Shown here piece after piece: positions 5,201 to 19,739 of a stretch of 32,000 nucleotides of DNA. Position numbers and translations under genes: made by a program. The DNA comes from Candidatus Methylomirabilis limnetica (GTDB lineage: Bacteria > Methylomirabilota > Methylomirabilia > Methylomirabilales > Methylomirabilaceae): contig NZ_NVQC01000026.1 in the NCBI RefSeq assembly GCF_003044035.1, positions 1 through 32,000 of the forward strand. Reading direction: 5' to 3'. The first letter of the stretch is position 1. Every line of letters begins with the position of its first letter. A model generated the notes under the pieces. The model was not told where the DNA came from. It made no database searches and saw only the letters and a program-made list of their open reading frames with translations.

Positions 5201-7570
5201 TCAGGCGGCTTCCTGGTAGAGATGGGTTTCGAGTTCTCTGATGGCGGCGAGGTACTTCTGCTTGCCACCAAAGAAGTTCACGATTTCGACCGGTGTGCCA
5301 AGCGTGGTTAGCGGATCGACCTTGAGGATTTCGAGAGACTCGACGCTCTTCAAGCCAGCGTCAGCGTACTTTTCGAGCAGAGCATCGAGCACGGCGCGCG
5401 CCCTGTCGCCATACTTGGCGAACACGTTGCGCTTGCGGACGTTCGCGGCTCGTTCGCGGCGCGTGAGCGGCGGTTGATCGAAGGCGACGTGACAGATGAG
5501 ATCGAAGGCGTCGAGGTCTTGGCCGACCTGTTCAGCCAGCTCGTCGAGGAACACCCCCTGACCGGCCAGCTCTTCGACGATGGCCTGCTTGCGGGCGGCG
5601 TCGTGCCAGGCATTCAGGAAGGCATTGAGTGATGTGTAGGCCTTGCGCACCGCCTTGCGGGTGTAGTCCTTGAGCGACTCGGTGATGAGCTTGCCGTCGA
5701 CGTCGAGGTATTGGACACGCTCGGTAACGACGGTGACTTCAACGTCGTTGACGTAGTACTTGACCGGCGTCTCGTGGATACCGAACGGCTTGGGCTCGAC
5801 GCCCCCTTCTGCCGTGGGGTCCGGGTACATGTCCTCCGACTCCGGCAAGGGTGCATCGTCGGGCGGTACCGGCGATTGATCTGCCTTCGGTTCGTAGATC
5901 TGGACGGGATCGCCGTCGAAGGTCGGGTCCGCAAACAGCGCAGTGGCCCGCTTGAAGTCCATTATGGTGAAGAAGAACTTGTTGTAGTCCTCGTTAATGC
6001 GCGTACCGCGGCCGATGATCTGCTTGAACTCGGTCGGGGAGTTGATGCGCTTGTCGAGCACGATCAGGTGGCAGGTCTGCGAGTCGACGCCGGTCGACAT
6101 CAGTTGCGAGGTGGTGACGATGACCGGGAAGGTGGACTCCGGATCGATAAAGTTGTCGAGTTGCGCCTTACCCTCCTCGTTATCCCCGGTTATCCGCATG
6201 ACGTACCTGCTGTTGGCAGCGGCAAGATCGGCGTTGGCGTTCACCAGCGCCTGGCGCATGCGCTCGGCGTGGTCAACGTTCGCGCAGAAGACGATCGTCT
6301 TGGCGAAGCGGTCGGTGGCCTTGAGGAACTCGGTGATCTTGGCGGCCACCAACTCAGTGCGTTTCTCGAGGACCAGACGCCGATCGAAATCGAGGTCGTT
6401 GTACTCCCGATCTTCAATCTCCTGACCGTACTTGTCGGTCTTGCCTTTCTCCGGACGCCACCCTTCGAGATCCTTATCGATACCGATGCGGACCACCTTG
6501 TAGGGCGCCAGGAAGCCATCTGCGATTCCCTGCTTGAGCGAGTAGGTGTAGATCGGGTCGCCGAAGTACTCGATGTTGGAGACGTCCCGGGTTTCCTTGG
6601 GCGTAGCGGTCAGGCCAATTTGCGTGGCCGACGAGAAGTAATCGAGTACCCTGCGCCAGGCCGCGTCGTCGGCCGCACTCCCGCGGTGACACTCATCCAC
6701 GACAACCAGGTCGAAGAAGTCAGGCGAGAACTGCTTGTAGATGTTCTGCTCTTCGTCGGTACCCGTAACCGCTTGGTACAGCGACAGGTAAATCTCGAAC
6801 GCCTTGTCGACTGTACGATTAGTGATCTTGGTCATCGCCTTACCGAACGGCTTGAAGTCGTTAATCTTGGTCTGGTCGGCGAGAATATTACGGTCGACGA
6901 GGAAGAGGATCCGCTTCTTGGCACCCGCTTTCCAGAGACGCCAGATGATCTGGAACGCCGTGTAGGTCTTGCCGGTGCCCGTCGCCATGACGAGCAGGAT
7001 GCGGTTCTCGCCGCGGGCGATGGCCTCGACCGTGCGGTTGATGGCGATAAGTTGGTAGTAACGCGGCGTTTTTCCCGAGCCGTCGTCGTTGTAGTCCTGG
7101 GTGGTCACCGCCTCCTGCGCGGCGGTGTAGCCCTTGCCCGCCCGGTAGCGTGCCCACAATTCTTCGGGCGACGGAAACTGGTCTAGCGGGATCTCCCGCT
7201 CCACGGTGCCGCCGGACCCTGTCCTGTCATGTTCCAGGAACGCGTCGCCGTTGGAGCTATAGGCGAAGGGTACATCGAGGATCTCTGCGTATTCGAGCGC
7301 CTGCTGGATACCTGCCCCCACCGCGTGCGTGTTGTCCTTTGCCTCGATGACCGCGATCGGGATGCCCGGCTTGTAGTAGAGGAGATAGTCGGCCTTCTTG
7401 GCCTCACCACGCTTGACAGTCTTACCCCTAACGATGACCCTGCCCTTCGTGAAATAGAACTCCTCGCGCAGCTGCGTCATCACGTTCCACTTGCTGCCGG
7501 TCGGGCCGACGAGCGCGGGGGTGATGAACTTCGTGCGGATGTCCGTTTCGGTCAGGGTCTTCTTATCCAT
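5201..7570 (-). CDS. hsdR: Type I restriction enzyme R subunit (helicase/endonuclease)
   Basis: 789 aa with an N-terminal nuclease region (ADYLLY...VIEAKD), helicase motif I (MATGTGKT) and motif II (VVDECHR). The C-terminal region resembles the EcoEI-type R C-terminal domain (recollection). The stop lies 3 nt before the hsdM start. Confidence 0.95.
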
Positions 7571-7871
7571 TGTTCCTGCGATCGCGGCTCACGCTCCAGG
7601 CCAGTAGGGTATGCGAGGCTAGCGGCATGGCAACGACTTCAGTGATCGATGTCATTCCGGGCTCTCGCAACCCCACAGTTCCCTCGTCTAGCCGATGCGC
7701 CCAACCATGAAGTGAGCCGCGTTAGAGGTCGACAAAGGCCGGCGACCCATCTCCCAAGAAAGCTCCACTTCTCAACGACGAATTTGTTCGCAATCTCCCA
7801 CACTTACCCCAACCGGTCAAGACTATTTAGCCGACAAACGCTGCCAGCTTCGGTGGCCTATCTCGGCCGCC

Positions 7872-8774
7872 CTATAGGCGATCAGCGGAGCTATTGGCCC
7901 CCAGTCCACCCCGGTTCAACATGTGGGCGTAGATCACCGTAGTGCTCACATCCAGATGACCAAGCAACTCTTGGACCGTCCGAATGTTATAGCCACTTCA
8001 CACAGGTGGGTGGCAAACGAATGACGGAAGGTGGGGCACTGCAGGTTGAGAGCACCCAGCGTCACGAGTCGCCTGCTTCACGGCCCGCTGCAGGACGGAC
8101 TCGTGTCGGTGGTGCCTGCGCTGTTCGCTGGTGATCCGGTCGGTGGCGTGGCGTGAGACCGGAACGACCCATTGCCACCCCCACTCCTTCAGCTAGACTG
8201 GCGTGGACCGGGCCGCGCCGGATGTCGCCCTTGAGTTGGACGTACCCTGCGACGGCTGGTGCCCCAAGGGGCGCAACGGCCGGGCCGGGCTCGGTGTCTA
8301 CGATCCGCTTGCTGGTCTCCCGATGCTCTGGAATCCGGCGACCGGGTAGCGTTACAGCGTGGGGAAGGGGAACAGATGACAGCGGGGATGCCACCCTTGA
8401 CATCGCGGTGTCCACCTCGCTTGACATGACCACCGCATCGCAGCGTCGATTACCACCACGAATCTGCCCTGCGGGAAGTCAACATGACGGGAGTGTAATC
8501 TGCACCACCCTCGGTGGCAGACGCGGTCCCTGTGGGCATCACTAACATACACTCTGCCACCTCATGCACGGCTCCCAAGGAACCTTTAGATAATCGCGTC
8601 GCGAAGGCTGGTCGAACTCTCAACGGGATCCTAGCCTACCTCCCTGACCGGGCGATGATCCGAATCACATACGAAGCGGCCCAGGGCCGCATGCCCCCTG
8701 CTGAGGCACCGATGTTCGCCACCAGACGGTACCACGCCCTGTTGCGGCAAGCTGGGCTGCGGCAGTTGCAGCAT
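7872..8774 (-). pseudogene. intI: integron-integrase-like tyrosine recombinase, decayed by several frameshifts and in-frame stops
   Basis: Manual minus-strand translation gives, in shifting frames: ...EWGWQWVVPVSRHATDRITSEQRRHHRHESVLQRAVKQATRDAG, then CPTFRHSFATHL, then [40 protein letters not shown]-stop (stop at 7872-7874). This tracks the IntI1 C-terminus as I remember it (W-x-W-x-VF...RRHH...QRAFK.AV..AGI.K.AT.HTLRHSFAT.LL..GYDIRTVQ.LLGH.DVSTTMIYTHVL..GG.GV.SPLD). The longest intact ORF in the track here is only 123 aa. The N-terminal limit (ATG at 8774) is approximate. Confidence 0.75.
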
Positions 8775-8805
8775 CTTGTTTTACGGCGAGCCGGCGTCTC
8801 CGGGA

Positions 8806-10458
8806 TTAGAAGTACTCGACCTCCTCAGGCGGACCGCTCACCGGGATCATCTCTTCGCCGGTGGGAATAGGTCTGCGCGGCGTGTATGTCGCGTGTGCCT
8901 GCTCGTCGTAGAAGTAGACTCCGGCTGCCTTGAGGGGTTGAAAATTCGGGTCTGCTGCGACGTGATCGCCCCCTCCGACAGAAGGAAGCCAGCCCTTAAG
9001 GTTGGCTTCATAGCTGAGGAGCCAAAGACGACCACGAAGCTCATCTGCGGTCATCGCTTGCTCCCATTGAGCAAGAGATGTGGTCCGCGACGCTTGGCCC
9101 TTGCTCCGAAGGTCGAGCGCAAGGAGGGCTACGACCACGTCTTCGAGGGTAGAGACGGCCTTCATCGCGTAATCATCGAGAGGGAGACCAAACAGGAGCA
9201 AGCCCCAGAGAGCCCACGCCACCTCGCTTCCGTGGCCCCTTGGCGCATGGTCAGCAAGGATGTTGTGCAGCGCCGAATGTAGGTTCTGCGTGTCGAGCTT
9301 GTAGCCTGCGTCCACGTACCGCTTGAGTTGCTCGATTGCGAACGGAAGGGTTCCGGGCTCAGAACACGCGGCTTGAAGCAGGAGATGCTGAAAGAGAGCC
9401 CAGTTTGAAGGAGCAACGATTAGCGACGACGCGCGGCTGATTGCGTACCGGAGAACCGGATCACCAGGGTTTGCCGACGCGAGTTCAAAGGAACGATCGA
9501 AGTATCGGATGAGGTCGTATCGCTGTGAGCGAACCCCGGGGCGGAAGGAGAAGATCCGGAGTTCCGAAGACCAAGGGCTGTCCACTGGACTCGGCAGATC
9601 GATGATGCGGGTCTTGGTGGGATTGAGCTGAAGCTCGAACTCGTTCAGTACGCCCTGGAGGATTGAGAGCGCCCTTTCTGCATCGGAGTAGCTGGCGAAG
9701 CCCAACTCGTAATCGTCGATGTAACGGAAGCCGTTGAGAGCCACCTGCTTGGCCAGAAGAACGTCGGCCGCAGTGAGAACCACCTCAGCGATCACGAGGG
9801 AGGTGTCCGGACCAATCGGGATTCCGATAGTCTGCTGATCTTGCGCGTTTCGCAGGCATCGGTCGATCATGTTGCCGAGTAGGGCAGTTGACGTCTTCTG
9901 GATCTTGGCGACGGCCTTGAAATGGAGCGCCCACGGCACGCTGTGTGTGTAGAGAGATGGGTAGAACTGCGAAATGTCCGCACGGAGGATCACGCGTGAT
10001 GTTGATTGGACCCGGGCGCGGTGGATTGGACGGTCGCTGAGTGCGGCTTTGCGGTCGATGGCCCGTTTGCCGGAGGCGTCGACCTGGGGGCTGGTTAGTG
10101 AAATCGGCGATTTGACGCAGTGTGCCACGATCGTCTGCCAGTGCGCCGCAACTAGTGAGGCAATCTGAGAGAAGCTCACGGGGTTTGGGATGCCCAGCCG
10201 TCGCCGAAGGCTGCCCGGTCGAGCGAGGTTGTGGACTGCGATCTGGGAAGAAAATGGAGGCGGCGGGTTCGGGTGAAACGCCGCGGGCAAAACAGTCAGT
10301 CTTGAGGCCGCGAGCGAGGCGAAGGGCTTCGTGGTAAATGGAGGAGGAAGCTCCCTCGCGAAGTAGCCGCGAGCTATCAGAGCGCCAAGGTCAGCCACTC
10401 GACTCGTACACTCCTTGCCCTCCAGCGCTAGCCCGCTCAGCCGGGCACCATCAGGCAT
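8806..10458 (-). CDS. stand-alone reverse transcriptase, UG/Abi (defence-associated) type, with a helical C-terminal extension
   Basis: 550 aa. RT motifs seen: LRRRLGIPNPVSF, RADISQFYPSLYTHSVPWAL, GIPIGPDTSLVIAEVVL, RYIDDYELGF (YxDD, encoded at ~9712-9723) and LQLNPTKTRI. After these comes ~270 aa of helix-rich sequence (NWALFQHLLLQAA...EVAWALWGLLLFGL...VVVALLALDL). I recognise no group II maturase/En domain and no nuclease, nitrilase or primase domain. Confidence 0.85.
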   Translation of the reverse strand: MPDGARLSGLALEGKECTSRVADLGALIARGYFARELPPPFTTKPFASLAASRLTVLPAAFHPNPPPPFSSQIAVHNLARPGSLRRRLGIPNPVSFSQIASLVAAHWQTIVAHCVKSPISLTSPQVDASGKRAIDRKAALSDRPIHRARVQSTSRVILRADISQFYPSLYTHSVPWALHFKAVAKIQKTSTALLGNMIDRCLRNAQDQQTIGIPIGPDTSLVIAEVVLTAADVLLAKQVALNGFRYIDDYELGFASYSDAERALSILQGVLNEFELQLNPTKTRIIDLPSPVDSPWSSELRIFSFRPGVRSQRYDLIRYFDRSFELASANPGDPVLRYAISRASSLIVAPSNWALFQHLLLQAACSEPGTLPFAIEQLKRYVDAGYKLDTQNLHSALHNILADHAPRGHGSEVAWALWGLLLFGLPLDDYAMKAVSTLEDVVVALLALDLRSKGQASRTTSLAQWEQAMTADELRGRLWLLSYEANLKGWLPSVGGGDHVAADPNFQPLKAAGVYFYDEQAHATYTPRRPIPTGEEMIPVSGPPEEVEYF

Positions 10459-10908
10459 CGTCGAACCGCCGGCTGCAGCGGCTTGCTGGGTATCGAGTTG
10501 TCCTCAGCGGCCAGACGGAGAAACAAAGCAGAACTGATTTCTCTCCACCGCGTTGGGCGGCCGCCCTTTCCAGTCTACTCCACCGCCGCGGTCCCAGGTG
10601 TGGGTGTTGGTGGGTGCCTCTCGAGCCGAGGCGGCGGTGCGGCCGGACGGTGCTCCCCTTCATCGGCGAGCATCCTGGCAGAGCGGAGGGCGGGACGTCA
10701 TGCGCTCCGACGACCCCCGCACGGGGACCGGCGCTCGTCGGGTGCGAGCCTCTGCATCGTCGTCTCAGCTCCGCAGCCACCTGTATCCGTGGATGCACGC
10801 GAGTAGGCGCTAGGACGCGCTGGGCCACGTTGAGCAAAAGATGGCGGAGAAGCAGCCAGCGATCGTCGAGGTTACGGCACCTGCAGGGCAGCCACCCGCC
10901 GTTCCTCA

Positions 10909-11817
10909 CTAGAGCATGTCCATTCGAAGCTGCGCGAACGCGAAGGCCCAGTGAGCCCAAGCGGATGGCGGGCGGGGGGCACTGAGAATTTCATCCGCCT
11001 GGGGGACCGAACCAACCACCTCCACTAACTGGTCCTTCAAGGGAAGGAGCTCTGTGAGGGGGGCAGGGTGCGCGCGAAGCCATCCAAGTAAGATCTGCGG
11101 GGAGGGCACCTTCGTCACCGCCGACAGGGAGCCCGCCACGAACTCACCGCCACTCGAGGCGCCTTTCGAGGAAGTGAAACTGATCCCGGATTGGAAGCCA
11201 GCCTGGAGCTGCCCACTGAGGTGCACCTGGCCGGAAAGCGTGCGGCCGACAGGATTGGCCACCCAGAGCAGCTCGGGGGCGAGGTGATCGAGCCGGCAGA
11301 CCGCGGGCGTCACATAATAGAATGCCCCAGCCTGATCGACCCCCCCGAGCCCGACCATCTCGATAGTCTCCTGCGTGGTAGCCCTGGCAGCCGTCGCCAC
11401 CGGGTCGCGGCGCAGATCGACTCCACAGCGAGCGACCCGGAAATGCAGGACGCGTAGCCACAGCCCCATCCCGGACTCCGCCAGCAACGAGAGGCTAGCC
11501 CGTACGCCCGCGGGGCTCGGCCGCGCCGCATTGAGAACCACATCGACCTCCTCCGGGGCCCAGGGCATGACGAAAATCTGACCGAGGCCCCGCAGCAGCC
11601 AGAGGGGGGAAATCTGATACCGGTCAGCCAGCACGCTAAGGTGCGGGCTTCGCAGCTCCACCTTCCCCGTCTCGGCCGACGAAATCGCATTCAGGCCCAC
11701 CCCCAGCGCTGCGGCCATCGTGGTCTGCGTGAGCCCCAGGGCGGCCCGCACGAGGGCCAGGCGGCGCCCGACCTCTTGGAGCTGCAGGCGCTCTTGACTA
11801 GATCGCTCTCTTCTCAT
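10909..11817 (-). CDS. XRE-family HTH protein with an uncharacterised ~220-aa C-terminal domain
   Basis: ORF track 10909..11946. I place the start at the ATG at 11817, because the product MRRERSSQERLQLQEVGRRLALVRAALGLTQTTMAAALGVGLNAISSAETGKVELRSPHLSVLADRYQISPLWLLRG is a canonical Cro/CI-type HTH. The 43 codons upstream cross an AT-rich promoter-like region. I do not recognise the C-terminal domain. Confidence 0.7.
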   Translation of the reverse strand: MRRERSSQERLQLQEVGRRLALVRAALGLTQTTMAAALGVGLNAISSAETGKVELRSPHLSVLADRYQISPLWLLRGLGQIFVMPWAPEEVDVVLNAARPSPAGVRASLSLLAESGMGLWLRVLHFRVARCGVDLRRDPVATAARATTQETIEMVGLGGVDQAGAFYYVTPAVCRLDHLAPELLWVANPVGRTLSGQVHLSGQLQAGFQSGISFTSSKGASSGGEFVAGSLSAVTKVPSPQILLGWLRAHPAPLTELLPLKDQLVEVVGSVPQADEILSAPRPPSAWAHWAFAFAQLRMDML

Positions 11818-11828
11818 GTGAATTTCAT

Positions 11829-11857
11829 TTGACAAAAGAAATATAGCTATGTAAGAT
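11829..11857 (+). promoter_or_regulatory. sigma-70-like promoter reading towards the transposon end and tnsAB
   Basis: TTGACA (11829-11834), a 17-nt spacer, then TAAGAT (11852-11857). The spacer contains the 8-bp palindrome ATAGCTAT (11843-11850). Confidence 0.4.
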
Positions 11858-11868
11858 AGGTCAGACGA

Positions 11869-12128
11869 TGTGGCGTATGTGACACCAAGCATCTCACATG
11901 ACACGAGAATCTTCAATCGCAAAGGCCTGGACGCCCAGCGAGGCAATCGCCGTGTCTCGGTTTAGGTGGCCACCGCGCTAGCGCCACGGAGCCGGTGGAC
12001 ACCCAGGACCGGACGCCGGATCAACTAGTTGCTGACGGAGGTGACCTCTTGCCAGACGCGTCACTTGGAGAATCCGTAGCAGTCGCTCCGACCGGTAGCG
12101 TCAATCGACGAAAACCTGTCACCAAGGG
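11869..12128 (+). repeat. candidate Tn7-like right-end region with reiterated GAC(A/G)CC(A/C)AG motifs
   Basis: TGTGGCGTATGTGACACCAAG starts at 11869 (the Tn7 family terminus is TGT...). Direct copies of the core are GACACCAAG at 11881, GACGCCCAG at 11930 and GACACCCAG at 11999, with related GTCACCAAG at 12118. The region sits directly upstream of tnsA, where Tn7-type right ends lie. Confidence 0.3.
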
Positions 12129-12154
12129 ATCTCGGTTTCGAGGAAGAGGACAAG

Positions 12155-14857
12155 ATGCTAACCAGCGATGATCTCCGTGCGTGGTCTCAACGTCTGAGTC
12201 TCTCGGAGGAGGGGCGGGCCGCAATCGATCGTGTGCGATGCTCCCCTCCTTCTCGCCTCGTGGGGGGCGGTAGGAACAACGTCAGCGGGCGGTACCCGAG
12301 CAAAAAGATGGGCGCCATGATCCAGTTTGAGAGCCACCGCGTGGAGTTGCCCACGATCTATGAACTGGAGCACGATCCCGACGTGCTCGAGTTCTACGAT
12401 CAGCCACCCCCGATCGAGTTGCGCTACGAGAGCAAGAGGGGGCGGCGGCTGATTGTTTCACACACCTCAGATTTCTTCGTCCTCCGAAAGGAGGCGGCGG
12501 GATGGGAAGAATGCAAGACTGAAGAGGGGCTGGTCAAACTTGCCGACGACGCCCCTCACCGGTACCAGCACACGGAGAATGGTCGCTGGCGCTGTCCGCC
12601 GGGCGAGGCCTATGCCGCGCCACGCGGCCTCTACTACCGCTTCCGCTCATCGCAGAAGATCGACTGGGGCCTCCAGCGGAACCTGCAGTTCCTGGACGAT
12701 TACTTCCGTGGGGAGCGCGTCCCCGTAAGTCCCGACGCCGAGCAGGCCGTGCGGGCCCAGCTCCGGACTGAGCCGGGGATCACATTGGCCGCCCTCGTGC
12801 GCAAGACTGAGGGGGCCGCGACGCAAGACGACATCCATTTCCTGATCGCCCGTGAGGAGATCTACGTGGGCCTATCGGCCGCGTTTCTCGGGGAGCCGGA
12901 CACGGTGCGGGTCTTTGTGTCGAAGGAGACCGCAGTCGCGTATGGGCGGGTGGTGAGCCCGCACCCTGGCCCGGCCCCCGCTGGGTGCCCCTACCTGGAT
13001 CTGCGCGTGGGAGGCGCGCTCGTGTGGGATGGGAGGGTCCGCAAGATCGTAAATGTCGGACAGACGACGATCAGCCTCCTGGGCGACGACTCGCACGTGG
13101 TGGACCTCTCGGAGGCGCAGTTGGAGGCGTTGGTGCGAGATGGTCGGATTAGCCCTGTCCCGGAAGCATCGGACGCGAGACCCCACGAGGAGGTGCTCCA
13201 GCGTCTCCAGGCAGCAGATGACCGAACGCTCGCAGTCGCCAACCGTCGGGACCGGATTCTCCGCGGCCAGGTGGGCGGGGACCCGCCTCCCAACGAGCCG
13301 CAGGTACCGGAGCGGACCCTCCGGCGTTGGAAGGCCTGGTTCCGGCAGGCCGAGGCGCACTATGGGAACGGCTTCGTCGGGCTCTTGCCGCGCACCCGTC
13401 AGCGGGGGAATCGGACCCCGAGGTTGTCAGAGGAGGTGAAGGCACTGCTTGAGGAGGCCATCCTGACGGACTACGAAACGCTCAAGCAAAAGACTAGGTA
13501 TGCCTGTTGGCAGGCGCTTAAGCTGAGATGCAATGCGCAAAAGGTTGTCGCCCCCAGTTACCCGACATTCTGCGAGGCGGTGAAAAAGCGTCCACAACTC
13601 CTAAAAACGCGCAAACGGCAGGGCCGTCGGGCCGCCTACGCGCATGAAGTACCTTATTTGTATTTAGACCAAACCACACCCCGTCATGGAGATCGGCCCT
13701 TTGAGATCGGGCATATCGACCATACCCAACTGGATTTGGAGTGTGTGAGTGCCGACGACGGCACGGGGCTCGGACGTCCATGGCTGACCCTTTTCACTGA
13801 TGCCTACTCCCGTAGGGTCTTGGCCTTCTACTTATCGTACGATCGGCCCTCGTCTCGCGCCTGTATGATGGTCGTCCGAGAGTGTGTCCGCCGGCACAGG
13901 CGGCTCCCGCAGATCGTGGTAGTGGACGGAGGTGCCGAGTTCGGGGGGAACTACTTTGAGGGCCTACTGACCATGTTTCAAATCCTGAAGAAAGTCCGGC
14001 CGCCAAGCAAGGCCCGGTTCGGCTCGGTGTGTGAGCGGATGTTTGGGACCACCAATACACAATTTTTGTACAACCTTGCCGGCAATACCCAGCTCACCCG
14101 ACGCCCTCGGCAGGTGACCAAGTCCACAAATCCTAAGAAGCACGCCGTCTGGTCCCTCGGCGAGCTCTACGAGCGCCTCGATGAGTACCTATACGAGGTT
14201 TTCGATACACTGTCCCATCCGGCACTGGGTCAGAGTCCCCGCGAGGCCTTTACGACGGGACAGGCGCAGAGTGGGCTGCGCTCCCATCGGCTCATTCCGT
14301 ACGACGAGACCTTCTTGCTTCTCACGTTGCCCCTCACGGCCAAAGGAACGGCCAAGGTCATGCCGGGGCGCGGTGTGAAGATCAATCATCTCTACTATTG
14401 GGCTGAGGTCTTTCGCGATCCTGAAGTCGAAGGGCAGTCGGTACCTGTGCGCTACGACCCCTTTGACGCGGGGCTCGCGCATGCCTTCGTCCGGGGCAGG
14501 TGGCAGCGGTGTCATTCGGAGTACTACCACGTGTTCCAAGGCCGGACGGAGCAAGAAGTGCGCCTCGCGACGAAGACACTCCTGGCGATGCGCCGTCAAT
14601 ACGCTCAGGACCGGGCCATCACCGCCAAGCGGCTCGCCGAACTGGTGCAATCCGTCGAAGTCCAAGAACAGCAGCTCATACAGCGGCGACGGGACCAGGA
14701 GAGTCTGAGGATACGGGGCGTCAGCACGGGGGCGGTGAGCGCTCCCGTGCCGCCCCGTCCTGCGGCTTCGCCACAGACCAGTGGCAGGGCTGCCGCGGGG
14801 GACGCGCCCGAACCTGAAACACCCGCACCGGATCGTAAGCCGTATGGGAGATTCTAA
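12155..14857 (+). CDS. tnsAB: fused TnsA-like endonuclease / TnsB-like DDE transposase
   Basis: 900 aa. The N-terminal part reads NVSGRYPSKKMGAMIQFESHRVELPTIYELEHDPDVLEFYDQPPPIE...SHTSDFFVLRKEAAGWEECK, which is the TnsA N-terminal E/D/K layout. The C-terminal ~550 aa form a Mu/TnsB-type core with IGHIDHTQLDL, LTLFTDAYSRRVLAF, VVVDGGAEFGG and GSVCERMFGTTN (DDE). It is a single uninterrupted frame. Confidence 0.9.
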   Translation: MLTSDDLRAWSQRLSLSEEGRAAIDRVRCSPPSRLVGGGRNNVSGRYPSKKMGAMIQFESHRVELPTIYELEHDPDVLEFYDQPPPIELRYESKRGRRLIVSHTSDFFVLRKEAAGWEECKTEEGLVKLADDAPHRYQHTENGRWRCPPGEAYAAPRGLYYRFRSSQKIDWGLQRNLQFLDDYFRGERVPVSPDAEQAVRAQLRTEPGITLAALVRKTEGAATQDDIHFLIAREEIYVGLSAAFLGEPDTVRVFVSKETAVAYGRVVSPHPGPAPAGCPYLDLRVGGALVWDGRVRKIVNVGQTTISLLGDDSHVVDLSEAQLEALVRDGRISPVPEASDARPHEEVLQRLQAADDRTLAVANRRDRILRGQVGGDPPPNEPQVPERTLRRWKAWFRQAEAHYGNGFVGLLPRTRQRGNRTPRLSEEVKALLEEAILTDYETLKQKTRYACWQALKLRCNAQKVVAPSYPTFCEAVKKRPQLLKTRKRQGRRAAYAHEVPYLYLDQTTPRHGDRPFEIGHIDHTQLDLECVSADDGTGLGRPWLTLFTDAYSRRVLAFYLSYDRPSSRACMMVVRECVRRHRRLPQIVVVDGGAEFGGNYFEGLLTMFQILKKVRPPSKARFGSVCERMFGTTNTQFLYNLAGNTQLTRRPRQVTKSTNPKKHAVWSLGELYERLDEYLYEVFDTLSHPALGQSPREAFTTGQAQSGLRSHRLIPYDETFLLLTLPLTAKGTAKVMPGRGVKINHLYYWAEVFRDPEVEGQSVPVRYDPFDAGLAHAFVRGRWQRCHSEYYHVFQGRTEQEVRLATKTLLAMRRQYAQDRAITAKRLAELVQSVEVQEQQLIQRRRDQESLRIRGVSTGAVSAPVPPRPAASPQTSGRAAAGDAPEPETPAPDRKPYGRF

Positions 14858-16047
14858 TGGATTCTGCGGAACATGCATTCCCCCCCACCCTCCTGACTCA
14901 GCCGTGGCCCGAACGGCTCAAGCACTTTCACGGCTATATCATGGGGCACCCGCACCTGGTGGCCGCCAAGGATCGACTGCTGGCAGCCATTCGAGAACTA
15001 GAGCCCAATTCGCTGGTTCTGGTCCTCGGTCCCACCGGCGTCGGCAAGACGACGTTAAAGAACGGAATTGAGAAAGAGCTCACCAAGGGCCTCCAGGAGG
15101 CAATGGTGACCGACCCCGGGAGGATGCCGTTCATCAGCGTCGAGGCGGTCGCGCCCGAGTCGGGCAACTTTAACTGGCGCGACTACTTCCGGCGGCTCCT
15201 GCTCCAGGGGGCAGAGCCGCTGGTGGACCACAAGCGGAAGGGCTCGCTGACGGAGGAAGAGGGCATGCCTGTCCTGCCGCTCATTCCCGGTACGAGAAGG
15301 ACCGGAGCGGAATACCAGCACGCCGTCGAACAGCTTTTGCGCTGCCGACGGCCGGAGGCGGTCCTGATTGACGAAGCGCAACACCTCGCCATCATGGTTT
15401 CAGGGCGTAAATTGTCCGATCAACTCGATGTCATCAAGTCGCTTGCGAATCGCAGCAGCACGCCCCATGTCCTGTTCGGGACCTATGGACTGCTCCCGTT
15501 CCGCAACTTAAGTGGTCAGTTGAGCCGCCGCAGCCTGGATATCCACCTTCCGCGCTATCGGGCCGACGACTCCCGGCAATGGGAGATTTTCCTCCATGTA
15601 CTGCGGGACTTCGAGTCGCAGCTACCGCTCCGGGAGCGCCCGGACCTCGTCCAGCATGCGGATTTTCTGTACGAACGCAGCATTGGCCTCGTGGGGGTGG
15701 TCAAAAACTGGTTGCTGCGGACGCTTGCCCCCGCGCTGGAAGCCGGGAAGACGACCCTCACTCTGCGCGACCTGGAGCGGCATGTACTCTCCGTCCCGCA
15801 ATGCCAGAAGATTTTGTCAGAGGCGCTGAACGGTGAGGACCAGATGGCCGAGAGCGCCGCTGAGCGCGCGCGGCTGCGCACGACCCTGGGGCTGGATACC
15901 AATCACACTGGCGCACAACCGCGGACAACGGAGGGGGCCACCCAGAACGGCTCCAAGGCCGCTGCGGCGCGGGCCACGAAGCTCCGACCTGGTCGGCGCC
16001 GGCCTAAGCGCGATGAGATTGGCACCGTGGTCTCCAGCCATGTATGA
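14857..16047 (+). CDS. tnsC: AAA+ ATPase of the TnsC/TniB family
   Basis: 396 aa with Walker A (LGPTGVGKTT) and Walker B (VLIDEAQHL). The ATG overlaps the tnsAB stop (TAATG at 14855-14859). Confidence 0.9.
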   Translation: MDSAEHAFPPTLLTQPWPERLKHFHGYIMGHPHLVAAKDRLLAAIRELEPNSLVLVLGPTGVGKTTLKNGIEKELTKGLQEAMVTDPGRMPFISVEAVAPESGNFNWRDYFRRLLLQGAEPLVDHKRKGSLTEEEGMPVLPLIPGTRRTGAEYQHAVEQLLRCRRPEAVLIDEAQHLAIMVSGRKLSDQLDVIKSLANRSSTPHVLFGTYGLLPFRNLSGQLSRRSLDIHLPRYRADDSRQWEIFLHVLRDFESQLPLRERPDLVQHADFLYERSIGLVGVVKNWLLRTLAPALEAGKTTLTLRDLERHVLSVPQCQKILSEALNGEDQMAESAAERARLRTTLGLDTNHTGAQPRTTEGATQNGSKAAAARATKLRPGRRRPKRDEIGTVVSSHV

Positions 16048-17950
16048 GCCCTGGGACCTGTCCCCTCCTGTCGTGCCACCGCGAAGTTCCCTATACTGCC
16101 TGGAGCCCATCGGCATTGGCACACCCTTCGTAGAGAGTCTCACAGGCTATATTGCCAGGCTGGCATGCGCGCATGCGGTTTCGGTGGCAGATCTGGTTAA
16201 GCTGAAGCTTATAGGAGATATGGCGAAGAGTCTACCGTTGAGCCCTCAAGGGGGAACACCGCATTGGACCTCTCGGCATGGCTTCAACCCGATGGGTTAT
16301 ACCCTCAATTGCATGACAGACACATCAGGAAAATGGATCGAGGCGTTGGAAGCCGCCACCCTACGCCGGGATCTCTCCGCGTTAACCCTCCTACCCTTTG
16401 CAGGTGGGGTCACCGCGCCGTTCCTTGTTCGCAAGGTTCGCGCGTGGTGCCCACGCTGTTATCAGGAGAGACGAGAGGCGAACAGCGACGTGTATGACTC
16501 CCTGCTCTGGGCTCTCCGCGTGGTAACAGTCTGCCCGCGGCATCAACAGCAGTTAGTAACCACGTGCCCGCACTGTGATCGAGAGCAACACCCCCTGGCC
16601 GCCTATTCGTACCCTGGCTCTTGCTCGCGATGTCGGCGCTGGCTTGGTCTTCAACAAGACACGAGCGGGGCCGACGGGGCAACTCGCCAAGAGGTAGTGG
16701 AGTATCAGTTCTGGGTGGCCAACACTCTCGGCGAATTCCTCGCGACGGCGCTACGCTTGCCGTCTCGATTGCCAAGGCCCAATATTAGGCAGAATCTCTG
16801 GTCCTATGTCAATCACCTCACCGGGGGCAACATGACGGCCTTCGCCGACCTCGTCCAGTCCCCTCGGATCCGAATCTGCTCCTGGCTAGCAGGGCAGCGT
16901 ATCCCACGTCTCGATTCCCTACTGCGGGTATGCTACCACCTGGGGATCTCACTGGTCACGCTTGTCACCGGCGATCCGTGGGACCCCGATGTCAGCGGGC
17001 CTCTGAAGGAGTCAGCCCGCTTCCGGCCCAACAGAGGCCGTGTGTGGCCTCATCGCCCGAACGAAGTACGTCGTGTGCTCAAAGCGGCCCTTCATGAGGA
17101 ACCCACTCCCAGCGTTGCTGCAATTGCCCACCGCATGGGTTACAGTGGGACAGGCCGCCTCTACCAAGTCGATCAAGATCTGTGCAGACGGATTACGGCC
17201 AACCACCGCAGGGCAAGATATTCCCCGGGGCGGAAAAGGCCGGGGGCGGGAAGAATCTGTGATGAGGCCACTATCAAGCAATCTCTCGAGCAATCCCTCG
17301 CCCAAGCGCAGCCCACCGCGCTCCATCGTCTTGCCCAGCGCCTCGGATACGCCAATGCTGTTGTCCTGCGCTCGAAGTACCCCGATCTCTGTCGGGCGAT
17401 CAGTGCTAAGCGCATTGCGTTGAGGAAGACCCGTCTAAACGCAGTTGAACTAGCACTACAAGCAGCCCTCGAGGAGGATCCGCCACCCTCATTGCGCGAG
17501 ATGACTAGACGACTAGGCCCCTCATGGCTCCAATCCCTGCGACAGCATTTCCCAGTCCTGTGCGACGCCCTTGAGAACCGACGCAAACAATACCGCGACA
17601 GCCGCGGGGCAGAACTGCAAAAAGCATTTATGGCCCTGTTGTCCGAGGATCCACCGCCCTCTGTCGTCAAGGCATGTCAGCGGGTTGGGGTATCGCAGGG
17701 CACCTTTTCTTCAAAGTTTCCCGATCTACGGAGTGCTGTTGCGGCAAGGTATGTGAAGCATCGGGCAGAAGCTAAACAAAAGCGGAAAGAATTGTTGCGT
17801 GAAAAAATACGTCATAGTGTGTTGCAGCTTCATCGTCAGGGTATATTCCCTTCTTGGTCACGTGTGATGAGTCTTCTAAGCAAAGACTCTCTGAAAGATT
17901 GGGATCTTCGCGCTAGATATTTCAAGGAAGCCAGACAAGAGTTAGAATGA
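16040..17950 (+). CDS. tniQ: TniQ/TnsD-family target selector with a C-terminal tandem HTH-like repeat array
   Basis: ORF track 15833..17950. I place the start at ATG 16040 (MYEPWDLSPPVVPPRSSLYCLEPIGIGTPFVESLTGYIARLA, a typical TniQ N-terminus). This start overlaps the tnsC stop as ATGTATGA. A Cys cluster follows: WCPRCY...VCPRH...CPHCD...CSRCRRW. Five ~57-aa repeats follow from 17060. Confidence 0.88.
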   Translation: MYEPWDLSPPVVPPRSSLYCLEPIGIGTPFVESLTGYIARLACAHAVSVADLVKLKLIGDMAKSLPLSPQGGTPHWTSRHGFNPMGYTLNCMTDTSGKWIEALEAATLRRDLSALTLLPFAGGVTAPFLVRKVRAWCPRCYQERREANSDVYDSLLWALRVVTVCPRHQQQLVTTCPHCDREQHPLAAYSYPGSCSRCRRWLGLQQDTSGADGATRQEVVEYQFWVANTLGEFLATALRLPSRLPRPNIRQNLWSYVNHLTGGNMTAFADLVQSPRIRICSWLAGQRIPRLDSLLRVCYHLGISLVTLVTGDPWDPDVSGPLKESARFRPNRGRVWPHRPNEVRRVLKAALHEEPTPSVAAIAHRMGYSGTGRLYQVDQDLCRRITANHRRARYSPGRKRPGAGRICDEATIKQSLEQSLAQAQPTALHRLAQRLGYANAVVLRSKYPDLCRAISAKRIALRKTRLNAVELALQAALEEDPPPSLREMTRRLGPSWLQSLRQHFPVLCDALENRRKQYRDSRGAELQKAFMALLSEDPPPSVVKACQRVGVSQGTFSSKFPDLRSAVAARYVKHRAEAKQKRKELLREKIRHSVLQLHRQGIFPSWSRVMSLLSKDSLKDWDLRARYFKEARQELE

Positions 17951-18034
17951 CGTTCCAATCATTAAGATCCTCCTTTTCCATGCCATAGAGAACTACCCCA
18001 CAGCGAGCCGCGGGGCATCAACCCTCCCAGATTG

Positions 18035-18071
18035 AAACCATAACATGGCCGCAGCGGCCATGTTATGGTTT
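18035..18071. terminator. 37-bp perfect palindrome, a hairpin resembling a bidirectional terminator
   Basis: AAACCATAACATGGCCGC-a-GCGGCCATGTTATGGTTT. A 15-bp GC-containing stem is followed by TTT on either strand. It lies 85 nt after the tniQ stop. Confidence 0.45.
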
Positions 18072-18111
18072 AAGTGACATCTCTCGCTGTTCCTGGGCTC
18101 GGAGAAAGCGC

Positions 18112-18141
18112 TTGACATCCCCCGCGTTCCGCATTGATATT
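18112..18141 (+). promoter_or_regulatory. sigma-70-like promoter upstream of the methyltransferase gene
   Basis: TTGACA (18112-18117), an 18-nt spacer, then GATATT (18136-18141). Confidence 0.35.
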
Positions 18142-18251
18142 GCACATGATATGCGCTTGAAGCCGCTGCTTACCTTTTCATCGTGTCGTGAGCATCGGCC
18201 ATATCGTGGGACGCGGCTGAGCCTTGCAGTGAGTGGGCGTGGAGAGTGAGG

Positions 18252-18989
18252 ATGGGTCATAAGAAGGCGGGATATGTCCCGGCGCTGGGCTGGGATTTTC
18301 TCACCCCGCTCTACGATCCCCTGGTTCGCCTTACTACGCGCGAGATGAGCTTCAAAAGTCGCCTCCTGGATGAAGCAGGCATCGACGAAGCCGCTCGGAT
18401 TCTCGACGTGGGATGCGGCACGGGGACGCTACTCCTGCTAGCGAAGCGCAGGTCAAAATCTCTGTTGGCTATTGGCCTGGATGGTGATATGAACGTTCTG
18501 GGTATTGCGAGGTCAAAAGCCCACAGGCAGGTCGAAGAAATCGCGCTGGTCCAGGCGTTCTGCTTTGATATCCCGTTTGCCGATGGCGCGTTCGATCGAG
18601 TCCTCTCGAGCCTGATGCTGCACCATCTGACGCGATCCGAGAAGGTCCGAACGCTGGAAGAGATCTTTCGCGTCCTGCGCCCAGAGGGAGAGCTGCACGT
18701 CGCCGACTGGGGGCGACCCCACACCCTGCTCATGCATGCGCTGGCTTTTTCTGTGCGCCTCGGTGACAGTTTCGCCAGGACTGCTGACAACATGAAGGGG
18801 CTCCTGCCTGCGCTCTTCCGGGACGCCGGGTTTGAGGAAGTCTCGGAAACGGCTCGGCTTGCAACGCTATTTGGTACGTTGTCGCTGTATAAGGCGCGCA
18901 AGCCATCCACGGCTGCCGCTCAGGGGCACGCCGGAAGCTTCTCTGTGCGTAACTACAAGGTAGATAGGCTAAAGACTGAAGGTTGTTAG
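18252..18989 (+). CDS. class I SAM-dependent methyltransferase
   Basis: ORF track 18246..18989. ATG 18252 is preferred because GGAGAG lies 5 nt upstream. The SAM motif ILDVGCGTGTLLL and later FDRVLSSLMLHHL / LRPEGELHVADW are typical of the Methyltransf_11/25 fold. Confidence 0.85.
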   Translation: MGHKKAGYVPALGWDFLTPLYDPLVRLTTREMSFKSRLLDEAGIDEAARILDVGCGTGTLLLLAKRRSKSLLAIGLDGDMNVLGIARSKAHRQVEEIALVQAFCFDIPFADGAFDRVLSSLMLHHLTRSEKVRTLEEIFRVLRPEGELHVADWGRPHTLLMHALAFSVRLGDSFARTADNMKGLLPALFRDAGFEEVSETARLATLFGTLSLYKARKPSTAAAQGHAGSFSVRNYKVDRLKTEGC

Positions 18990-19107
18990 GGGTAAAGCAG
19001 TGATCACGCAACACTTCGGGCATATGAGTTGGATGGTGAAATCGCAATGCGTTGAAGAGCCTTCAGCCTTCGGCCTAAACACCTAAGTAGTTACCTCGGA
19101 GGTTACA

Positions 19108-19539
19108 ATGGTTACTGTAGCCGCTATACTCTTTGTAGTGTTGGCCTTATTTGGTTTTGCTTGGCCTTTTCTTCACTCTTATCGACTGAAGAGGAGACGG
19201 ATCAACCTGGATACGGAGATCCGGCTTTCCCAGAATCGGATCACTGTAGTCACCTCCGACTCCATCCCGGAGCGTGTAACGGAACAGGTGCTGGGTTCAA
19301 TAACGGGAACGTCGCAAATACCCGCCTCAAACGATGAGGAGCGGAAGCTGGCCGAGCGAGAGGCGATGTACAGCCTTATCGAGCAAGCGCTACAGTTGGG
19401 GGCCAACGCGGTTATCGATCTGAACATGACCACAGAAAGTTTCGAGTTCACAGAACCGAAGAAGTTCCTCGTCTTCCCCGCTGCCACTTGGACGGCCACA
19501 AAGGTGATCTACGTGGGGACGGCTGTGAAGGTGATCTAG
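19108..19539 (+). CDS. YbjQ/UPF0145-like protein with an N-terminal transmembrane helix
   Basis: 143 aa with GGAGG upstream. The N-terminal hydrophobic segment is VAAILFVVLALFGFAWPF. The C-terminal part reads EAMYSLIEQALQLGANAVIDLNM...YVGTAVKV, as in YbjQ-family proteins. Confidence 0.7.
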   Translation: MVTVAAILFVVLALFGFAWPFLHSYRLKRRRINLDTEIRLSQNRITVVTSDSIPERVTEQVLGSITGTSQIPASNDEERKLAEREAMYSLIEQALQLGANAVIDLNMTTESFEFTEPKKFLVFPAATWTATKVIYVGTAVKVI

Positions 19540-19739
19540 ACCAATTTCCTCGGGGCTGATGGCCATAAGCTTGGACTGTTCTGTCACCCCCTGGAAATAA
19601 CTTGACTCTATTTTCTCTGGCATGGTATCGGTTGCACGGTTTCTGCTGGATTTCTTTCCAGGTTCGTCTGTGTGCCCCACCCGACGCGAAAATAAGGCCA
19701 TGGGGCGATCGCCGTTGTGCTTATCCGGGGAGTTTGTGG

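Follow-up and report, generated by a model that had tools for sequence, protein, structure and literature searches.

The reverse transcriptase (RT) gene at positions 8806 to 10458 of the window, the whole 32,000-nucleotide stretch of DNA that was analysed, very probably encodes a class 1 UG/Abi RT of group UG12 (i.e., DRT6) that is self-sufficient as a single gene, the upstream helix-turn-helix (HTH) gene being an unrelated neighbour. The protein was identical to CLG94_10305 of Ca. Methylomirabilis limnetica, which is on file as a 'hypothetical protein'. An earlier note on this DNA had taken the RT, RNA from a 450-nt spacer and the HTH gene for a single uncharacterised defence module. The features considered were as follows:

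7881..8210, minus strand: tyrosine recombinase remnant, C-terminal third, downstream of the RT (tblastn, L048 integrase as query)
8806..10458, minus strand: stand-alone defence RT, very probably of DRT6/UG12 type, 550 aa (PADLOC Drt6, PDB 9wy8_A and Pfam RVT_1 matches)
10459..10908, minus strand: unconserved non-coding gap upstream of the RT (no periodicity, Rfam match or excess fold)
10909..11817, minus strand: XRE/Cro-CI-type HTH protein with a rare C-terminal domain of about 220 aa (HTH_3, HTH_31)
11815..11908, no strand: AT-rich DNA separating the HTH gene from tnsAB and resembling a divergent promoter/operator (repeats, inverted repeat, promoter-like site)

One flank of these features comprised the Type I restriction-modification (R-M) genes hsdR, hsdM and hsdS together with a DUF4268 gene. 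The other comprised a Tn7-like operon: a TnsA-like/rve/Mu-transposase-C fusion (tnsAB), then a TniB-like ATPase (tnsC) and TniQ. Searches of 10700-12150 and 17900-19700 for Tn7-like ends (terminal inverted repeats, repeated TnsB-type sites) returned nothing convincing. The recombinase remnant matched residues 246-356 of the L048 integrase at 49% identity (E 1e-25) and carried in-frame stops and a frameshift. The defence-island setting described previously, with a Type I R-M operon and a dead integrase on one side and a Tn7-like transposon on the other, was thus borne out.

Probable assignment of the RT to DRT6

The RT was of the UG/Abi defence type, as had been proposed, according to both PADLOC profiles and NCBIfam. 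Among the PADLOC profiles, Drt6 (UG12; PDLC03748) scored 573 bits (E 1.6e-172), with its positions 4-486 of 511 aligned to residues 24-526. Models from the same UG classification scored as follows: Drt4/UG15 (PDLC03752) 259 bits, UG30 172 bits, and UG14 151 bits. Two older PADLOC models labelled Drt4 scored almost as high as Drt6 (PDLC02177, 561 bits; PDLC02179, 534 bits), so the label given to this RT hinges on the model set that is trusted. The NCBIfam models for Drt4, Drt3, retrons and group II introns were all far under their cut-offs; Drt4 gave 240.7 bits, under an equivalog cut-off of 450.

The best solved structure was 9wy8_A (phmmer, E 2.3e-83), in which chain residues 402-893 aligned continuously with RT residues 24-521. 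UG15/DRT4 structures matched at E 4e-28 and AbiK at 2e-12. Entry 9wy8 is an MBP-fused RT with six chains. The DD of its YVDD motif occupies chain residues 621-622, as expected for D223/D224 if a tag of about 398 aa precedes them. The term DRT6 is absent from the name that the depositors gave the molecule; taken together, its fusion to MBP, its six chains and the position of the DD indicate that the entry is probably DRT6. The C-terminal helical (alpha-repeat) domain of the RT was homologous to that of this probable DRT6.

UG12 has been validated as DRT6, and the RT catalytic site is needed for defence (PMC9226505). The HMM comparison with UG/Abi profiles called for in the earlier note therefore placed the RT, by its Drt6 score and by 9wy8, in a known and validated single-gene class (PMC9226505, PMC12783706), and the term 'uncharacterised' does not apply to it.

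Three other kinds of RT were considered and rejected. For a retron, the St85 RT model gave 25.9 bits (cut-off 235), and no Rfam match was found in 10300-12200 at E<=1. For a group II intron, TIGR04416 gave 44.6 bits (cut-off 300), and no Rfam intron match was found across the whole window. For a diversity-generating retroelement, direct repeats in 7000-12500 did not exceed 23 nt. The exclusion of these three types by the earlier reading held.

Proposed mode of action

DRT6 is described in a preprint as an RT alone, assembling into hexamers (bioRxiv 10.64898/2026.04.29.721553, citing Wang et al. 2025). Its synthesis is template-independent and its product is covalently bound to the enzyme (PMC12783706). 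ORF55 activates it, its defence is of the abortive-infection type, and knocking out sbcB renders it toxic (PMC12783706). The reference protein defends E. coli against T5 and ZL-19 (PMC9226505, PMC12783706).

By homology, the RT would form a hexamer and constitutively make short ssDNA. This DNA would be made without a template and kept covalently on the enzyme, an attachment that in DRT6 follows from protein-primed synthesis. Host 3'-5' exonucleases, e.g., SbcB, would normally clear it. When a phage infects, its ssDNA-binding protein (ORF55 in T5) would shield the 3' end, and the build-up of ssDNA would lead to growth arrest or death before the phage cycle is completed.

The surroundings may be accounted for separately. 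The 450-nt stretch probably consists of junction DNA and the promoter/5'-UTR of an RT gene gained by horizontal transfer. The HTH gene probably belongs to a small backbone held in common with the adjacent Tn7-like tnsAB, and the DNA behind it holds defence genes that differ between lineages: here the RT and a Type I R-M system; in relatives, another Type I R-M system with an AAA/S8 protease and DarTG.

The HTH gene and its relatives

Counted from an ATG start shared with its relatives, the HTH protein was 302 aa long; the longest ORF extended to 11946, and the NCBI annotation gives 327 aa. Its N-terminus matched HTH_3 (31.8 bits) and HTH_31 (30.8 bits), both over cut-off. No Pfam, PADLOC or NCBIfam profile matched the remaining residues, confirming that about 220 aa of this protein fall outside any family. 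AlphaFold2, given a 4-sequence alignment, produced a model with pLDDT <50 across most of residues 85-302.

In total, four matches to the HTH protein were found in 5.8e9 clusters; one was the protein itself, leaving three relatives. Exhaustive HMMER searches of 1.84e9 representatives found two true relatives of the C-terminal domain. A third match was a repeat protein aligned only via a repeated motif of about 13 residues, LAPELLWAADDVG, and was regarded as spurious. JGI metagenomes yielded only generic XRE HTH-domain matches at residues of about 16-82. An RT was found downstream of none of the three HTH-gene relatives.

The contigs of the two closest relatives (L001 and L003) were 91% identical to each other and gave a combined order of tnsAB, a divergent HTH gene, then hsdM-AAA-S8-hsdS-DarT-Macro. 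Synteny between the window and these contigs stopped at the relatives' HTH stop codon. The copy in the window was about 20 C-terminal codons shorter, and homology to L001 and L003 continued past its stop, ending at 10857 and 10846, respectively, inside the spacer. The HTH-proximal part of the spacer, about 55 nt (about 10846-10908), is a relic of the ancestral HTH 3' end beyond a premature stop. By sequence comparison, the HTH protein and the RT are neighbours, not conserved partners.

The region between the HTH gene and tnsAB contained three copies of ATGTGA/TCACAT (at 11816, 11877, and 11894), a 15-nt inverted repeat with arms at 11807-11821 and 11894-11908, and a predicted promoter-like site on the plus strand at 11829-11857. 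A 40-nt block within it and beyond (11887-11926) was 90% identical in L003. An operator common to the HTH promoter and the RT was sought and rejected, there being no copy of ATGTGA/TCACAT in the spacer upstream of the RT. No intrinsic terminator was predicted between the HTH gene and the RT; read-through transcription, and hence some local regulation of the RT by the HTH protein, is therefore possible.

An ordinary DRT6 could be accompanied by a local transcription factor acting on the defence genes downstream of it, here the RT, perhaps along with the Type I R-M operon. The repeat cluster and inverted repeat in the HTH gene's own promoter region would suit such a factor, its conserved C-terminal domain could bind a signal, and in both lineages the gene lies 5' of co-oriented defence genes (RT and hsdRMS in the window; hsdM-AAA-S8-hsdS-DarTG in L001). 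However, the repeat motif does not recur upstream of the RT, the copy in the window has lost its last 20 or so codons relative to its relatives, and the conserved neighbour is the divergent tnsAB, so that the transposition operon is an equally good regulatory target. This explanation was judged unlikely. A gene of this kind would resemble the regulators that head defence islands, functional in the strain without being a conserved system. A further suggestion, considered quite unlikely, is that the HTH protein serves as a dedicated sensor or regulator at the edge of the Tn7-like backbone, placed over an exchange slot for defence cargo and gating DRT6 here.

Neighbours of the RT in other genomes

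RT relatives were encoded in at least 596 species genomes. For comparison, 80 RT-bearing genome loci were fetched, and five metagenomic contigs carrying closer or similar RT relatives were added (closest, 69-73% nucleotide identity). Whether RT homologues keep the HTH neighbour and the spacer had been singled out in the earlier note, which had set as a refuting outcome an RT of an already characterised single-gene class whose homologues lack a conserved HTH-gene neighbour; this was the outcome obtained. No relative of the HTH protein was present at any of the 80 loci (tblastn returned noise only), and none was present on the five contigs.

No other gene took its place. The 385 ORFs neighbouring the RT loci formed 322 clusters, the biggest of which contained Type I R-M subunits from seven loci; the next biggest reflected local synteny between related cyanobacteria. 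In a Pfam scan of 136 immediate RT neighbours, no family occurred more than four times, and HTH_3 was absent from the families seen at least twice. The upstream products on four RT contigs with recorded gene calls were: RadC, DUF4268, Gp49/HTH_37, and a family-less product of 109 aa. On two further contigs, the upstream side lacked any gene call (L087) or had just a fragment of 42 aa (L085). DNA similarity was confined to the RT coding sequence, with none beyond either end (blastn; 80 loci and closest contigs). The upstream gap in RT relatives had a median of 127 nt and was at least 419 nt in 10 of 67, so a length of 450 nt is not exceptional. The HTH gene and spacer did not travel with the RT elsewhere, which argues against a new two-part system.

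The spacer itself gave no coding signal in any of the six frames, in agreement with its earlier description as lacking a convincing ORF. Codon-position GC periodicity was absent, with GC of at least 0.62 everywhere compared with GC2 of 0.39-0.51 in local genes. A hidden gene was rejected: the overlapping ORFs of 169 aa (minus strand) and 215 aa (plus strand) had no Pfam family and no periodicity. A non-coding RNA was likewise rejected, as there was no Rfam match (gathering thresholds; E<=1), the minimum free energy z-score against shuffled sequence was +0.42 (i.e., the spacer folds no better), and no similarity to the 80 RT loci or the closest RT contigs was found by blastn at word size 7.

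These results bear on the proposal of a single uncharacterised DRT/Abi-like system with several components, namely the RT, RNA from the spacer and the HTH/unknown-domain protein, the last acting as sensor, regulator or effector. The two genes are adjacent and co-oriented with no predicted terminator between them, no family can be assigned to the C-terminal domain of the HTH protein, and an upstream ncRNA is required by some other DRT classes, namely DRT2, DRT3 and DRT9 (PMC9226505, PMC13213688). However, the pairing was private to this locus: HTH relatives were missing from all 80 RT loci, the closest RT contigs had other upstream genes or none, and the closest relatives of the HTH gene had no RT beside them. 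In addition, there was no conserved neighbour family or flanking DNA, the spacer was unconserved, unstructured and without an RNA family, and the RT family is experimentally sufficient alone (PMC9226505, PMC12783706). The single module is accordingly very unlikely, and the DRT6 assignment, with the HTH gene as bystander, is preferred.

Integrity of the RT gene

The intact 550-aa RT with a full palm reported previously was present, with the motifs IPNP, RADISQFYPSLYTH, GIPIGPDTS, RYIDDY and LQLNPTKT all at the expected coordinates and no fused effector domain, also as reported. Pfam RVT_1 scored 42.5 bits (cut-off 29.6). D248 and D249 were invariant in a 33-sequence alignment. Similarity in RT relatives started at about residue 21-24. 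An alternative GTG start, with AAGGAG just before it, lies at 10398 and would stretch the untranslated gap to about 510 nt.

That the RT is a decaying, functionless relic of a dead mobile element is most improbable: its immediate downstream neighbour is a degraded tyrosine recombinase, the gap on its upstream side has an unusually high GC content and length, and the first 20 or so codons are not conserved, but the ORF is full length and uninterrupted with normal codon-position GC (0.65/0.47/0.68), the catalytic YIDD and all residues invariant among 32 relatives are kept, and the Drt6 profile is matched over nearly its whole length.

With the RT read as DRT6, CLG94_10305 can be annotated as a DRT6-type antiviral RT, a result of little significance beyond annotation. 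It places the DRT6 family, with its relatives in at least 596 species, in the NC10 phylum. The locus also illustrates that a neighbour in the same orientation and a long gap upstream are not enough by themselves for a multi-component system. A mildly interesting by-product is that a rare HTH gene stays with Tn7-like tnsAB, while the defence genes behind it differ by lineage.

Comparison with known systems

The DRT6 reference is Sphingopyxis sp. PHR10625.1, with 9wy8 as its probable structure. The RT described here resembled it in its N-terminal segment, YxDD palm and C-terminal helical domain, in the nearly full-length profile match, in being a single gene without a conserved partner or RNA, and in its defence-island location with adjacent R-M genes. 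It differed in showing only moderate identity, in its NC10-phylum host, and, if the ATG start is used, in an extra non-conserved N-terminus of about 20 residues.

DRT4 (UG15) is of the same class and has the same domain layout. The RT presumably shares with it protein-primed, template-independent synthesis of ssDNA that becomes toxic when shielded by an SSB-like protein of the phage (PMC12783706). Unlike DRT4 itself, the RT matched DRT4 structures, the UG15-derived PADLOC model and NCBIfam Drt4 only at the lower levels given above (E 4e-28, 259 bits and 240.7 bits). The priming residue Y125 of E. coli DRT4 paired with K137 of the RT in one pairwise phmmer alignment (chain 21ou_A).

AbiK, Abi-P2 and AbiA are also class 1 stand-alone Abi RTs with a palm and a helical C-terminal domain. 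They make untemplated, protein-linked DNA, and the RT may by analogy do the same. Unlike a family member, it matched them over the palm only, at about 110 bits (AbiK 113), across residues of about 83-290 or 156-285.

The ncRNA-dependent systems DRT2, DRT3 and DRT9, together with retrons, share with this locus a defence RT gene preceded by a non-coding stretch. The RT differed from them in its scores (Drt2, 14.8 bits; retron model, 25.9 bits), and the stretch upstream of it differed in being unconserved and unstructured and in belonging to no Rfam family.

Locus organization

The reverse transcriptase (RT) and the HTH gene lay in the same orientation on the minus strand with a spacer between them.

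Features of the locus (coordinates, strand, description)
7881-8210 (-): remnant of an IntI/Xer-like tyrosine recombinase (C-terminal third), interrupted by in-frame stops and a frameshift and located between hsdR and the RT
8806-10458 (-): RT ORF, 550 aa, from ORF call and Pfam RVT_1
10459-10908 (-): spacer, the gap separating the RT and HTH ORFs
10909-11817 (-): HTH ORF, 302 aa, with its ATG at 11817, a start common to its relatives
11807-11926: divergent HTH-tnsAB intergenic region with three ATGTGA/TCACAT copies and a 15-nt inverted repeat
12155-17950 (+): Tn7-like operon encoding a fused TnsA-TnsB (900 aa), a TniB-like ATPase and TniQ (705 aa)

An earlier note on this stretch had described the locus accurately. 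All of the RT motifs it quoted were present in the 550-aa protein, which Pfam RVT_1 matched at 42.5 bits (cut-off 29.6). The N-terminus of the HTH protein was an XRE-type HTH (Pfam HTH_3 and HTH_31 above their cut-offs), and the remaining ~220 aa, which the note could not assign, had no family match in Pfam, NCBIfam, PADLOC or PHROGs. The spacer, in which the note saw no convincing ORF, is truly non-coding: codon-position-2 GC was 0.39-0.51 in real genes of the window, GC in the spacer was at least 0.62 at every codon position in all frames, and neither of the two long ORFs that overlap it had a family match. The flanks were also as described, with Type I restriction-modification (R-M) genes (hsdR, hsdM, hsdS) and a DUF4268 gene on one side and Tn7-like genes (a 900-aa TnsA-like/integrase-core/Mu-transposase-C fusion, the TniB-like ATPase, and TniQ) on the other. 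The dead integrase corresponded to the degraded recombinase at 7881-8210, and its position beside the RT is a hint that an integrative element, now decayed, brought the RT in.

Assignment of the reverse transcriptase

A search against PADLOC-DB gave Drt6 as the best of the UG-based models (573 bits, E 1.6e-172), aligned nearly end-to-end (RT residues 24-526 to positions 4-486 of the 511-position profile). Other UG-based models scored 259 (Drt4/UG15), 172 (UG30), and 151 bits (UG14), and the AbiP2 and AbiK models ~113 bits. Two older PADLOC models labelled Drt4 scored 561 and 534 bits; the older label therefore evidently lumps UG12-like sequences. The proposed likeness to UG/Abi enzymes held. 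The NCBIfam models for retrons, group II introns, Drt2, Drt3, and Drt5 stayed far under their cut-offs and no DGR-type repeats were found at the locus. The RT catalytic motif was intact. The identical protein is on record for Candidatus Methylomirabilis limnetica as CLG94_10305, a hypothetical protein, and the profiles of standard defence finders would assign its label automatically.

Of the solved structures, the RT matched 9wy8 best (E 2.3e-83, residues 24-521), a six-chain entry for an MBP-fused "reverse transcriptase domain-containing protein"; UG15/DRT4 (E 4e-28) and AbiK (2e-12) structures came next. A literature search found no paper naming this entry. We infer that 9wy8 is a DRT6 hexamer because DRT6 was expressed as a His-MBP fusion and mutated at D223/D224 in the DRT4 paper (PMC12783706), numbering that fits the DD of the 9wy8 YVDD (chain residues 621-622) after a ~398-residue tag, and because bioRxiv 10.64898/2026.04.29.721553 cites a cryo-EM structure of DRT6.

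Gene neighborhoods of RT relatives

Scanning one genome per species revealed RT relatives in at least 596 species of bacteria and archaea, and 80 loci were taken with 6-kb flanks. The HTH protein gave only noise against these loci (tblastn). Taking the three ORFs closest to the RT on either side gave 385 ORFs, which formed 322 clusters. The largest, Type I R-M subunits, occurred at seven of 80 loci, and the next largest reflected local synteny among related cyanobacteria. Among 136 immediate neighbors no Pfam family was seen more than four times, and HTH_3 was absent from the families seen at least twice. The closest RT genes, at 69-73% nucleotide identity, resembled the window only within the RT coding sequence. 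Four RT contigs had an upstream gene call on record. It was RadC in L004 and DUF4268 in L084; L086 had a toxin-antitoxin-like Gp49/HTH_37 pair set among housekeeping genes, and L088 a 109-aa product for which no family was recorded. Upstream of the RT, L085 carried only a 42-aa fragment and L087 no called gene.

The earlier note's HTH-RT pair was not borne out: the RT falls into a characterised single-gene class and its homologues kept no conserved HTH-gene neighbor, the outcome that the note itself had named as refuting its proposal. No HTH relative occurred in the 80 loci, and the HTH relatives on contigs L001 and L003 lacked an RT.

In several unrelated genomes (L016, L017, L019, L079, L081) a DRT6-type RT lay directly 3' of co-oriented Type I R-M genes, and no other class of neighbor recurred. 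Separately, the last gene of the window's Type I R-M operon encodes DUF4268 (1140-2240, -), and another DUF4268 gene (L084:570-1514) is the immediate upstream neighbor of an RT with 72% identity; genes of this kind may recur as companions in defence islands.

Spacer and intergenic region

Even at E<=1 the spacer matched nothing in Rfam, and it folded no better than dinucleotide shuffles (z = +0.42). Together with the lack of similarity beyond the RT coding sequence, this argues against the spacer RNA that had been entertained. Among upstream gaps in the RT family it is toward the long end without being exceptional: the median was 127 nt, and the gap was at least 419 nt in 10 of 67 loci. ATGTGA/TCACAT repeats were absent from the spacer and clustered in the HTH gene's own promoter region. 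Within 11807-11926, a 40-nt block was 90% identical in L003, above the flanking genes. This region is likely an operator/promoter, or possibly a transposase-binding region.

HTH protein and Tn7-like element

A word-indexed search of 5.8 billion clusters returned four matches to the HTH protein, one being itself. When the C-terminal domain was used for an exhaustive HMMER search of 1.84 billion representatives, two true relatives emerged; a third match, a repeat protein, was regarded as spurious. A metagenome scan gave generic HTH-domain matches only. Outside the HTH domain, the AlphaFold2 model, made from an alignment of four sequences, could not be relied on (pLDDT <50).

L001 and L003 (91% identical), representing a sister lineage, together gave the order tnsAB, divergent HTH gene, hsdM, AAA ATPase, S8 peptidase, hsdS, DarT, Macro-domain gene, with no RT alongside. 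Window positions 10846-11817 corresponded to L001:24-1033 and L003:601-1609. Behind the HTH gene the window differed, carrying DRT6, the integrase remnant, and hsdRMS-DUF4268. Because synteny ends at ~10846-10857, exactly the relatives' HTH stop codon, a slot of defence-gene exchange behind the HTH gene is suggested. The window copy has a premature stop ~20 codons earlier than its relatives; therefore the first ~55 nt of the spacer are a relic of the HTH coding tail. A further relative, on L002, was 38% identical and had unrelated neighbors; downstream of it, a 69-aa ORF (L002:2414-2623, -) resembled, by eye, a group II intron maturase at its C-terminal tail.

No terminator was predicted between the HTH gene and the RT. 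Most simply, the HTH protein is an independent transcription factor on a backbone shared with the Tn7-like tnsAB gene. The reading, drawn from only two lineages, that this rare protein governs a defence-cargo exchange slot next to the Tn7-like element is very improbable.

Downstream of tniQ lay only a small methyltransferase gene (18246-18989) and, from 19602, an outer-membrane-type gene followed by housekeeping genes (ABC substrate-binding protein, two-component system, nadA/C/B). A search for the element's ends did not locate them. Just 3' of tniQ (~18020-18075, +) was a perfect 18-bp-stem hairpin, AAACCATAACATGGCCGC-AGC-GGCCATGTTATGGTTT, which could be a terminator or a transposon-end/recombination site.

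Comparison with known systems

The association of UG12 with defence islands had led to its prediction as a defence gene. When cloned under its native promoter, it gave E. coli moderate protection against T5 and ZL-19; this protection required the RT catalytic site, and the system received the name DRT type 6 (PMC9226505). The near-full-length match to this named system is at odds with the earlier description of the RT as uncharacterised. DRT6 parallels DRT4 (PMC12783706), and a 2026 review places it among single-gene systems as a relative of DRT4 (PMC13213688).

A self-sufficient DRT6 is the best-supported reading, given the family membership seen in its sequence, the intact catalytic motif, the stand-alone habit, and the defence-island context. 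By analogy with the characterised DRT6 homologue, the RT would form a hexamer and constitutively make ssDNA in a protein-primed, template-independent manner. A host 3'-5' exonuclease would remove this product until a phage ssDNA-binding protein stabilised it, and the stabilised ssDNA would lead to growth arrest.

On the curated NCBIfam Drt4 equivalog the RT scored only 240.7 bits (cut-off 450). The priming residue of DRT4, Tyr125, aligned with Lys137 of the RT in a single pairwise alignment. The locus lacks the tested features of DRT4, retrons, group II introns, DGRs, and the proposed two-gene module. Judged by its sequence, the RT has every testable defining feature of DRT6/UG12 and adds one member to the already known DRT6 family, not a two-part system.
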